This document shows positions 60,713 to 62,017 of a DNA stretch of 64,000 bases, one piece after another. Source of the DNA: a phage. Made by a program: the position numbers and the translations under genes. The stretch lies in assembly GCA_024672275.1 (NCBI GenBank), contig GCA_024672275.1_4536.1; one strand, 5' to 3'. Within the stretch, counting starts at the first letter, position 1, and each line of letters opens with the position of its first letter. Below the pieces are notes generated by a model. It made no database searches, was not told the origin of the DNA, and saw nothing but the letters and a program-made list of their open reading frames with translations.

Positions 60713-62017
60713 ATGTCAACTACAATTACTAATTTACCAGAAACATCAAAAGTTAATGGTTCTGATTACCTGGTTTTAGACCAATCTGATAAGACTGTTA
60801 AAAGCACAGTTTCCAACTTTCTTACTGACACTGGGGTGGTTTTAGCCACCCAGTTGAAAGATACAGATGGAGCAGATTTAATACAATCCTCAAATGGTAA
60901 TACTGTTCAGGAAGAGTTGAATAACAATCTTCTTAATAATCGTGAACAGTGGCGTCGTAGTCTTGCTGAGGCAGGGTTAACCCTTGTCAACGGTAGCTTT
61001 GAAGAAGGGGCTACAGTAAACAATAAGACGGATGCTGTTTGGCATATTGCTGGTGGGCAGTGCTATACGTGGGATGGTGCTTTCCCTAAAGCTGTTCCCT
61101 CTGACTCAACCACTACATCAACCGGTGGTGTTGGAACAGGTGCATGGGTTAGTGTTGGTGATGCATCTTTGCGTACTGATTTATCTTCATCTGATGGTGC
61201 TGGGCTTATTGGTGTTAGCTCTGGAGGGACAGTACAAGGCTCCCTCTCCGACATTAAGAACTTAATTAAGCACGCGCAGCCGCTTTCTGACAGACGCATC
61301 GTAGCTATTGCTCACCGTGGATATTCAGAGACGTATTTAGAGCAAACACTGATGGCTTACAGTCAATGTAATGCTGATGTATTAGAAGTCGATATGCAAA
61401 CTACATCAGATGGGTATGCTGTGTGCTTCCATGACAATGACTTGTCCCCTGCTACCGTAGGAGGTTCTGGGGCGGTAAAAGATAACACATACTCCACCGT
61501 TTCCGCATTACGTTTTACAAGAGCCGTCGGTACAAGATACGCAGACATGGCGGGCATACCGACATTGGGGTCAGTCTGCCGGATTGCTATGCGACGCGGT
61601 AAAATGCTTCACGCAGAAATAAAAGGCTACAGAACGTTAGAAGATTGCGCTCTTTACTCGAGCATAGTCAACCAATACGGCTTGAGTCCATACACCACAT
61701 TTTCATGCTTCGACTTCGCTCCGTTGGCATACACCCACAACATAAATCCGCGTATTACCTACGCACTAGAGTTAAACTCTTACGATAGTAGCATGGACGC
61801 TAACATAGCAGAGCTTGCGTCCTGGGGCGGGTCTGTGTTGTCTATAAACAAAAACATATTGAGCACTATAGGCAATAAGAAGCTTCGCGAGTGGGAGGCT
61901 ATGGGGCTTACTTTGGCCGCATGGACGATATACACGGCAGAACAAATGCAGACCGTTGCCAATTACGGCATACGTCTTGTATATCTGGATAAAGATTTTT
62001 ACAACATTATAGGTTAA
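60713..62017 (+). CDS. tail fiber protein with C-terminal glycerophosphodiester phosphodiesterase (GDPD) domain
   Basis: N-terminal fiber-like region; C-terminal IAHRGYSE...EVDMQTTSDGYAVCFHDNDL (HRG, E-x-D, HD motifs). Confidence 0.55.
   Translation: MSTTITNLPETSKVNGSDYLVLDQSDKTVKSTVSNFLTDTGVVLATQLKDTDGADLIQSSNGNTVQEELNNNLLNNREQWRRSLAEAGLTLVNGSFEEGATVNNKTDAVWHIAGGQCYTWDGAFPKAVPSDSTTTSTGGVGTGAWVSVGDASLRTDLSSSDGAGLIGVSSGGTVQGSLSDIKNLIKHAQPLSDRRIVAIAHRGYSETYLEQTLMAYSQCNADVLEVDMQTTSDGYAVCFHDNDLSPATVGGSGAVKDNTYSTVSALRFTRAVGTRYADMAGIPTLGSVCRIAMRRGKMLHAEIKGYRTLEDCALYSSIVNQYGLSPYTTFSCFDFAPLAYTHNINPRITYALELNSYDSSMDANIAELASWGGSVLSINKNILSTIGNKKLREWEAMGLTLAAWTIYTAEQMQTVANYGIRLVYLDKDFYNIIG

Follow-up and report, generated by a model that had tools for sequence, protein, structure and literature searches.

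We analyzed a 64,000-nucleotide (nt) stretch of phage DNA (hereafter the window; contig GCA_024672275.1_4536.1 of NCBI GenBank assembly GCA_024672275.1) and, near its end, a gene that encodes a protein of 434 amino acids (aa). Based on sequence comparison and structure models, this protein is probably a virion tailspike in which a metal-dependent glycerophosphodiester phosphodiesterase (GDPD) head replaces the usual beta-helix glycosidase or lyase and acts, aided by a partner protein, on a glycerol-phosphate O or K antigen. An earlier note on this DNA had proposed a tail fiber with a C-terminal GDPD domain that could cleave phosphodiester-linked surface polymers during adsorption. It overlooked that the gene is one half of a two-gene cassette, the other half being a downstream open reading frame (ORF) of 255 aa.

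Tailspike architecture and the GDPD active site

The Pfam scan placed two domains in the protein (coordinates in Table 1). Tail_spike_N (PF18668) covers aa 92-150 (E = 1.1e-20, 73.9 bits against a cut-off of 25) and GDPD (PF03009) covers aa 201-426 (E = 6e-21, 76.1 bits against a cut-off of 23.6), the latter spanning profile positions 1-240 of 244. Ahead of both lies an anchor whose first 54 residues are, based on tblastn, 92.6% identical to phi92 gene 143 and 85-96% identical to many Phapecoctavirus and Justusliebigvirus spikes. Within the PDB, the Tail_spike_N segment has sequence matches in 8x8m, 9occ, CBA120 TSP1 (4oj5), 5w6h and G7C gp63.1 (4qnl). In PHROGs, the N-terminal third of the protein matches many tail spike and tail fibre families, and the GDPD part matches one phrog, annotated as 'tail fiber'.

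Two features of tailspike genes are present: PF18668 itself, and a location in the tail module, at the spike locus right after the homologues of gp141 and gp142. The spike is not a classical beta-helix tailspike, as no beta-helix family was matched in it by the Pfam scan; sister spikes of the same slot, unlike this one, carry PF12708 or PF13229. In the AlphaFold2 (AF2) model the 284 residues past Tail_spike_N consist of a short neck followed by the GDPD barrel. The fiber-like N-terminus described in the earlier note is thus right in that the N-terminus of an adsorption organelle is fused to a GDPD domain, but this N-terminus is a tailspike adaptor, made of a phi92 gp143-type anchor and Tail_spike_N, and not a fibre. 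The exact 434-aa protein exists in NCBI as a third-party-annotated hypothetical protein (NV830_001162) on a 151,261-bp contig labelled E. coli.

The GDPD signatures that had been read from the C-terminal half are all present in the translation (IAHRGYSE at aa 199-206, EVDMQTTSDG at aa 225-234 and VCFHDNDL at aa 237-244), and the GDPD call is backed by both the Pfam domain and the GDPD-like fold of the AF2 model. The Pfam scores lie well outside what chance would give. To assign individual residues we used a phmmer alignment to the Thermoanaerobacter tengcongensis GDPD 2pz0 (PDB sequences). All seven positions (H201, R202, E225, D227, H240, E302 and K304) stay the same in each of 24 homologues, the most distant of which have 43% overall identity. 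Loss of the metal-binding His, Asp and Glu residues had been named as grounds for rejecting the proposal; in the 24-homologue alignment all of them are kept. Activity of GDPD enzymes is reported to need five residues, namely two His, two Glu and one Asp (PMC10194240). The spike has all five: H201 and H240 as the two His, and E225, D227 and E302 as metal ligands.

The AF2 model, which is of moderate confidence (mean pLDDT 69.5), shows an alpha/beta barrel of alternating strands and helices from aa ~197 to 433. In a Foldseek search it matched B. subtilis GlpQ (5t9b) with E = 1.4e-11, and at the sequence level GlpQ (5t91) aligns to the C-terminal domain with a phmmer E-value of 1e-10 (PDB sequences). 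The Foldseek probability was 1.00 against more than 30 GDPD structures, with TM-scores on the target of 0.56-0.69. The central spike GDPD of phage phi812 (9EUL) and the C-terminal domain of phage K gp155 (9F5M) were also matched, the 812/K domain by sequence as well as by fold, and the weaker structural and sequence matches include the lysophospholipase-D enzymes 7ym0 and 8ghh. Scores against the NCBIfam equivalogs lie far below their cut-offs (51 bits versus 264 for the UgpQ-type NF006989 and 19.5 versus 254 for GlpQ NF008354), so the spike GDPD would represent a divergent phage clade and not an orthologue of GlpQ or UgpQ. Judged by alignment and model together, the spike carries a complete GDPD active site in a TIM barrel.

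It is very improbable that the GDPD fold serves as a non-catalytic, lectin-like binding head, or that the spike is a degenerate remnant that is idle in infection. Its length would suit a remnant, 434 aa being short relative to neighbouring spikes of 600-750 aa. However, the catalytic and metal-binding residues are invariant over the range of homologues given above, and the remote metagenomic GDPD homologues retain the same motifs apart from single substitutions. Moreover, both the ORF and its partner have stayed intact in many independent backbones, a sign that purifying selection maintains an active enzyme.

A linked partner gene in a mobile cassette

By sequence, the window is from a Phapecoctavirus-like (phi92-type) myophage; its positions 40000-64000 are ~98% nucleotide-identical to Phapecoctavirus genomes such as ZCKP1 and EF1-1. 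Gene order is syntenic with phi92 gp141-gp143 and ZCKP1 gp109-gp111, and the GDPD gene comes straight after the gp141 and gp142 homologues, in the slot of the phi92 endosialidase gp143. Conservation of the gene across 50,697 deposited phage genomes is confined to its first ~450 nt (aa 1-150), and no record covers at least 80% of the gene. A match at 63% coverage in phage UP17 was rejected as alignment run-on, the true similarity ending at ~aa 155.

Based on blastn, homology to the ZCKP1 backbone extends over 60000-61165 and is found again over 63141-64000; the segment with the GDPD domain and the partner is absent from close Phapecoctavirus relatives. Two unrelated phage contigs match it instead at 90-92% nucleotide identity, one (L003) over 60940-62810 and the other (L004) over 60941-62918. 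The backbone and cassette homologies overlap at 60940-61165, that is, in the Tail_spike_N segment, which places the crossover site there. These alignments indicate that the two-gene unit was gained by recombination inside the conserved Tail_spike_N segment.

The GDPD module is found on other adaptors as well. At 92-97% identity it is fused to a P22 head-binding domain, to a T7 tail-fibre N-terminus and to a Kuttervirus-type N-terminus. More distant versions (60-67% identity) are part of tail proteins encoded by prophages of E. coli, Citrobacter, Proteus and Providencia, including Mu-like and siphophage prophages. Presence on many tail adaptors is the hallmark of an exchangeable receptor-specificity module. 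The cassette of the window itself had no match in 5426 complete E. coli genomes (blastn, distant setting). We also observed two other spikes on the Tail_spike_N platform: a 533-aa protein (P0060) with a second, unrelated-looking GDPD variant, and the spike of phage JLBYU50 (P0109) with a 'phosphodiester glycosidase' domain (PF09992). From these, phosphodiester-directed heads may have been recruited more than once.

The partner gene has no match in Pfam, PHROGs or NCBIfam, and is missing at this position in phi92 and ZCKP1. The pair of GDPD and partner genes recurs in at least 12 tail-gene contexts. A partner homologue of 255 or 256 aa follows the GDPD gene at a distance of 5-14 nt in L003, in L004 and in prophages of Providencia rettgeri (Mu-like), E. 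coli and Proteus vulgaris (both of siphophage type), and in Citrobacter sp. wls830 the two genes have consecutive locus tags. Across five contexts the two proteins diverge jointly, with identities to the window of 97, 96, 62, 67 and 62% for GDPD versus 85, 94, 52, 66 and 49% for the partner. We considered whether the 434-aa and 255-aa ORFs could be a single frameshifted spike and ruled this out, as they lie in different frames and are separated by 5-14 nt in every backbone.

The partner family is small, with 13 close clusters among 5.8 billion proteins. A profile search of 1.84 billion representatives returned 25 matches, nearly all of them stand-alone proteins of 250-270 aa. Genomic adjacency was looked up for five remote members. 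Three metagenomic partners (~20-23% identity to that of the window) directly follow GDPD-domain tail genes of 486, 517 and 275 aa; a fourth, on a short contig, is preceded by a truncated ORF that finishes in a GDPD-like C-terminus, and the fifth is on a contig too short to judge.

GDPD domains in deposited phages are almost all from phages of Gram-positive hosts. The only Gram-negative cases found are two T1-like members of the Drexlerviridae, Erwinia phage Snitter and Escherichia phage DTL (NC_047893). A tblastn search of the 50,697 deposited phages with the partner gave no match at E < 1e-3, and only profile comparison exposed family members in these two phages. In Snitter, an annotated hypothetical gene right after the GDPD gene matches the partner profile over its full length (hhalign probability 98.6%, E = 1e-15). 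In DTL the match is an unannotated ORF of ~265 aa right after the GDPD-bearing tail fibre gene (hhalign probability 97.5%, E = 9e-12); in the deposited record this ORF falls in an annotation gap of ~850 nt past the tail fibre gene (locus L020, 4150-5013, + strand). Thus, in the contexts examined, the partner is a constant companion of tail-borne GDPD genes of this kind.

The AF2 model of the partner (pLDDT 76) is built of two beta-sandwich domains, of which the first is similar to carbohydrate-binding modules (CBMs); as predicted, it has the jelly-roll fold of CBM4/16/22-like modules. Matches of the model in BFVD are mostly tail spike and fibre proteins, and its fold also resembles the CBM-like domains of tail spikes. 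Since the jelly-roll fold is widespread, this likeness is suggestive only. Past M1, the residues invariant among divergent partners are limited to P79, P105, G118, R145 and G223, a pattern that speaks for a role in structure or binding more than for catalysis; the family shows no binding motif that could be recognised. Based on the predicted fold, the partner most likely belongs to the same spike, as a subunit for glycan binding or for assembly.

Candidate substrate on the host surface

The proposed function can be laid out along the protein. By homology, aa 1-55 would dock the spike at the baseplate position used by the phi92 endosialidase gp143. The segment of aa 60-190 (helix, Tail_spike_N and neck helix) would build a trimeric stalk, a homotrimer being suggested by homology of the N-terminal modules, and aa ~195-434 would form the TIM barrel, giving three GDPD barrels per spike. 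At adsorption, the barrel would hydrolyse phosphodiester bonds of a glycerol-phosphate (or similar alditol-phosphate) O antigen or capsule, either cutting a teichoic-acid-like backbone or stripping phospho-substituents. Either mode of cleavage would let the phage bind reversibly and advance to the outer membrane, and the co-inherited 255-aa protein would bind the glycan or assist assembly of the same spike.

Phosphate-bridged polymers are found in certain O antigens of E. coli, Proteus and Providencia. For the capsules of Gram-negative pathogens, teichoic-acid-like polymers are well documented (PMC11666461). Clues to the substrate were obtained from lysogens. In the E. coli prophage module, which is found at 100% identity in three complete E. 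coli genomes, an Acyl_transf_3 gene comes immediately after the GDPD and partner genes; Acyl_transf_3 genes are often O-antigen acetyltransferases that temperate phages use in serotype conversion. The galF-gnd locus of strain M171-1 encodes a small cytidylyltransferase, a CDP-glycerol glycerophosphotransferase, two GT2 glycosyltransferases, a flippase and a hypothetical protein that may be the polymerase. Such a CDP-glycerol galF-gnd cluster is present in 4 of 5426 complete E. coli genomes (strains M171-1, EF7-18-51, SC516 and BS90R-A), and two of these four are lysogens of the prophage (hypergeometric p ~1e-6, calculated by hand and ignoring clonality). Together, the Acyl_transf_3 neighbour and the lysogen cluster point to surface glycans with glycerol phosphate as the substrate. 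The O-antigen clusters of the lysogens give circumstantial backing to the suggestion in the earlier note that phosphodiester-linked surface polymers are cleaved. With regard to M171-1 (NZ_CP101666.1; locus L011, 31563-38225 and 43396-50000), we observed that its galF-gnd cluster is of Wzx/Wzy type and is interrupted by an ISAs1 remnant, and that the strain also has an O8-family wzm/wzt cluster beyond wzzB.

Phosphodiester cleavage could also leave the polymer standing. As a receptor-modifying enzyme, the GDPD would remove side groups (glycerol phosphate or another phospho-alcohol) from the O antigen, capsule or lipopolysaccharide (LPS) core with the backbone intact, a mode that can be likened to that of gp63.1, the esterase spike with which phage G7C deacetylates its receptor. 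We consider this unlikely, while recognizing that it has several points in its favor: the GDPD spike is without a beta-helix groove for holding a long polymer, its Tail_spike_N platform is common to G7C gp63.1 (4qnl), and known GDPDs, for example GlpQ (5t9b), free terminal glycerol-phosphate or alcohol groups. In addition, the one TagF-like transferase among the Wzx/Wzy-type genes of the lysogen cluster fits one glycerol phosphate per repeat, possibly as a side group. However, the present data fit backbone cleavage equally well, and glycerol phosphate in the main chain would mean depolymerisation by the same chemistry.

Several observations weigh against a tailspike that acts on a glycerol-phosphate antigen. 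We expected glycerol-phosphate genes in every lysogen, and this failed for the third one, PEC148, an O171-type strain with a sialic-acid O-antigen cluster that is without such genes. The two positive lysogens may be clonal, in which case the association statistic is inflated, and the prophage GDPD is just 67% identical to that of the window, so its specificity may differ. Phage DTL, with the same kind of module, is recorded on E. coli K12, which has no O antigen; the module would then not always be needed for infection, or would have a different substrate. Characterised GDPDs are mostly exo-lytic or act on small diesters, and a depolymerase would need endo activity. As regards the structure, the quality of the AF2 model is mediocre over the first half of the barrel (pLDDT 41-76), and stable trimerisation is hard to account for in a spike that has no beta-helix.

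The K12 record of DTL, a phage with both GDPD and partner, would also fit a target close to the membrane or LPS, such as phosphatidylglycerol or lysophospholipid heads, the phosphatidylglycerol anchor of enterobacterial common antigen or core phosphoethanolamine, with local destabilisation of the outer membrane as the outcome. The GDPD superfamily does include lysophospholipase-D enzymes, two of which are the weaker matches mentioned above. We nevertheless regard such a target as highly unlikely. The module lies in a peripheral, exchangeable spike slot in which enzymes specific for capsules or O antigens are otherwise found, it diversifies like a specificity determinant (identities of 62-97% for GDPD and 49-94% for the partner), and the predicted fold of the partner suggests glycan binding. 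As for the K12 record, T1-like phages do without lateral fibres on rough K-12.

A phosphodiesterase tailspike directed at glycerol-phosphate antigens is the reading that we prefer. A more specific form of it can be put forward only tentatively. In this form, the GDPD spike and the 255-aa protein would be a two-component receptor-recognition module not described before, of a phosphodiesterase 'depolymerase' class specific for teichoic-acid-like O antigens or capsules of Gram-negative bacteria, with glycerol or ribitol phosphate in them; the separately encoded, CBM-like partner would supply recognition or assembly, and the unit would move among the myo-, sipho- and podophage tails of Enterobacterales phages.

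Genomic neighborhood and relation to known systems

The features of the GDPD gene, the cassette and the two preceding tail genes are collected in Table 1.

Table 1 Features of the GDPD tailspike locus, in window coordinates
Feature	Position	Strand	Basis and remarks
GDPD tailspike gene	60713..62017	+	434 aa, ATG start; slot of phi92 gp143; ORF list, Pfam, synteny
Ribosome-binding site AGGAG	60703..60707	+	Overlaps stop codon of preceding gene; read from sequence
Baseplate-anchor module, aa 1-55	60713..60877	+	Common to phi92 gp143 and other Stephanstirmvirinae spikes; tblastn
Tail_spike_N (TSP1/Gp66-type), aa 92-150	60986..61162	+	Pfam PF18668; also recombination crossover zone
GDPD TIM-barrel domain, aa 201-426	61313..61990	+	Pfam, PDB sequence matches 2pz0/5t91, Foldseek
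Codons H201 and R202 (HRG motif: catalytic His, phosphate-binding Arg)	61313..61318	+	H17/R18 of 2pz0
Codons E225-V-D227 (ExD metal-binding motif)	61385..61393	+	E44/D46 of 2pz0
Codon H240 (second catalytic His, FHD motif)	61430..61432	+	H59 of 2pz0
Codons E302-I-K304 (third metal ligand, conserved Lys)	61616..61624	+	E119/K121 of 2pz0
Partner gene, 255 aa, two beta-sandwich domains	62023..62790	+	5 nt past GDPD gene; CBM-like first domain
Mobile cassette: Tail_spike_N, GDPD, partner gene, short tail	60940..62918	+	blastn; ~1.9 kb
Tail protein, 717 aa, phi92 gp142 homologue	58551..60704	+	Pfam NCTSP TIM barrel 5.5e-79, NCTSP_N, Calx-beta; synteny
Tail protein, 958 aa, phi92 gp141 homologue	55666..58542	+	phrog_2871 'tail protein', E = 0; 2877 nt, like phi92 gp141 and ZCKP1 gp109

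In the gp142 homologue, a Calx-beta domain at the N-terminus is joined to the N-terminal and TIM-barrel domains of a 'non-contractile tail sheath protein', an odd annotation for a phage with a contractile tail. Downstream of the partner, the segment at ~62920-63140 has no match in any locus compared. It runs into an ORF of 96 aa (63030-63320, + strand) whose N-terminal part is charged and resembles a coiled coil and whose C-terminus is hydrophobic; the annotated ZCKP1 gp112 matches no more than the final 52 codons of this ORF. A 102-aa ORF follows (63498-63806, + strand), which is annotated as 'tail protein' in ZCKP1 and is 70% identical to the N-terminal adaptor (~92 aa) of another GDPD spike (P0006); this likeness suggests that it is the N-terminus of a Kuttervirus/G7C-type tailspike, present as a free-standing stub. 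Fragments around this ORF are 95-99% identical in the unrelated contig L004. Further upstream, ten tRNA genes (Met, Arg, Ser, Asn, Thr, Gly, Gln, Pro, Ile and Met) lie at 33957-35879 on the + strand, just past a sign change of the GC skew (~32 kb) that probably corresponds to the switch from minus- to plus-strand genes.

The closest functional precedent for the GDPD spike is the central spike of Staphylococcus phages 812 and K (9EUL; K gp155 C-terminal domain 9F5M/9F49), likewise a tail protein that finishes in a GDPD barrel with two catalytic His. In phage 812 a lectin-like knob precedes the GDPD domain, giving the same logic of binding module plus GDPD, and this 'petal' domain has been proposed to cleave teichoic acid (PMC13433997). 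In contrast to the spike of the window, these phages have a Gram-positive host, the GDPD domain (~19-22% identity) is on the central baseplate spike and not on a peripheral tailspike, the binding module is part of the same polypeptide instead of having its own gene further downstream, and Tail_spike_N is lacking. The baseplate of Lactobacillus delbrueckii phage Ld17 is described as harboring a glycerophosphodiesterase (Cornelissen et al. 2016, J Biol Chem, as cited in PMC6116005 and PMC10194240). This too is a virion-borne GDPD, with the same five-residue active site and 23% identity over 94% of the domain (tblastn), but Ld17 is a siphophage of a Gram-positive host, it acts on thick-wall teichoic acids, and the fusion context is different. 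Among solved structures B. subtilis GlpQ (5T9B/5T91) is the best match by both structure and sequence, at ~22% identity. Unlike the spike, GlpQ is a secreted, stand-alone phosphate-scavenging enzyme that does not belong to a virion, and it is exo-acting.

In terms of position, the counterpart is the phi92 endosialidase gp143 (EndoN92), which shares slot and N-terminal anchor and thus presumably the same position on the baseplate. By annotation, gp143 has a sialidase beta-propeller as its head, together with a beta-helix stalk and a chaperone domain at the C-terminus that is cleaved, whereas the GDPD spike has no C-terminal chaperone domain and is accompanied by a separate downstream gene. Tail_spike_N is shared with G7C gp63.1 and CBA120 TSP1-4 (4QNL, 4OJ5, 5W6F, 5W6H). 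G7C gp63.1 is an SGNH esterase that modifies the O antigen, so the same platform can bear an enzyme other than a glycosidase. These spikes differ in having beta-helix or beta-sandwich bodies and glycosidic or ester bonds as targets, and none has a GDPD domain. The partner gene resembles gp38 of T2/T6-type phages and Tfa of Mu and P2 in being a small gene right after a fibre or spike gene that is co-inherited and co-diverges with the distal module; in the Providencia Mu-like prophage, the GDPD and partner pair is followed by a Caudo_TAP remnant. There is, however, no relation in sequence or fold to gp38 or Tfa, the partner being a two-domain, CBM-like beta-sandwich protein whose attachment to the spike is only putative.

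Tail GDPDs in phages of Gram-positive hosts (Ld17, 812, K and enterococcal phages) and the modular exchange of tailspikes are established. In the literature we found only Gram-positive cases and no described or characterised GDPD tailspike of a Gram-negative phage; likewise, we found no mention of the partner family, no functional work on the DTL fibre, and no phage enzyme against phosphate-bridged O antigens or teichoic-acid-like capsules of Gram-negative bacteria. In databases, these GDPD and partner proteins are named 'hypothetical', 'tail fiber' or 'GDPD family protein'. To our knowledge, the characterised tailspike enzymes of Gram-negative phages are glycosidases, lyases or esterases only. 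A phosphodiesterase head, if true, would add to these tailspikes a chemistry against phosphate-bridged polymers. The linked partner represents a small protein family that has no annotation and whose role in the function of the spike can be tested, and the rare CDP-glycerol O-antigen cluster of the lysogens provides a concrete candidate substrate; the enzyme could serve for typing or degrading glycans of the glycerol-phosphate type. The cassette illustrates how host range may be reprogrammed by a compact two-gene swap at a conserved adaptor domain.

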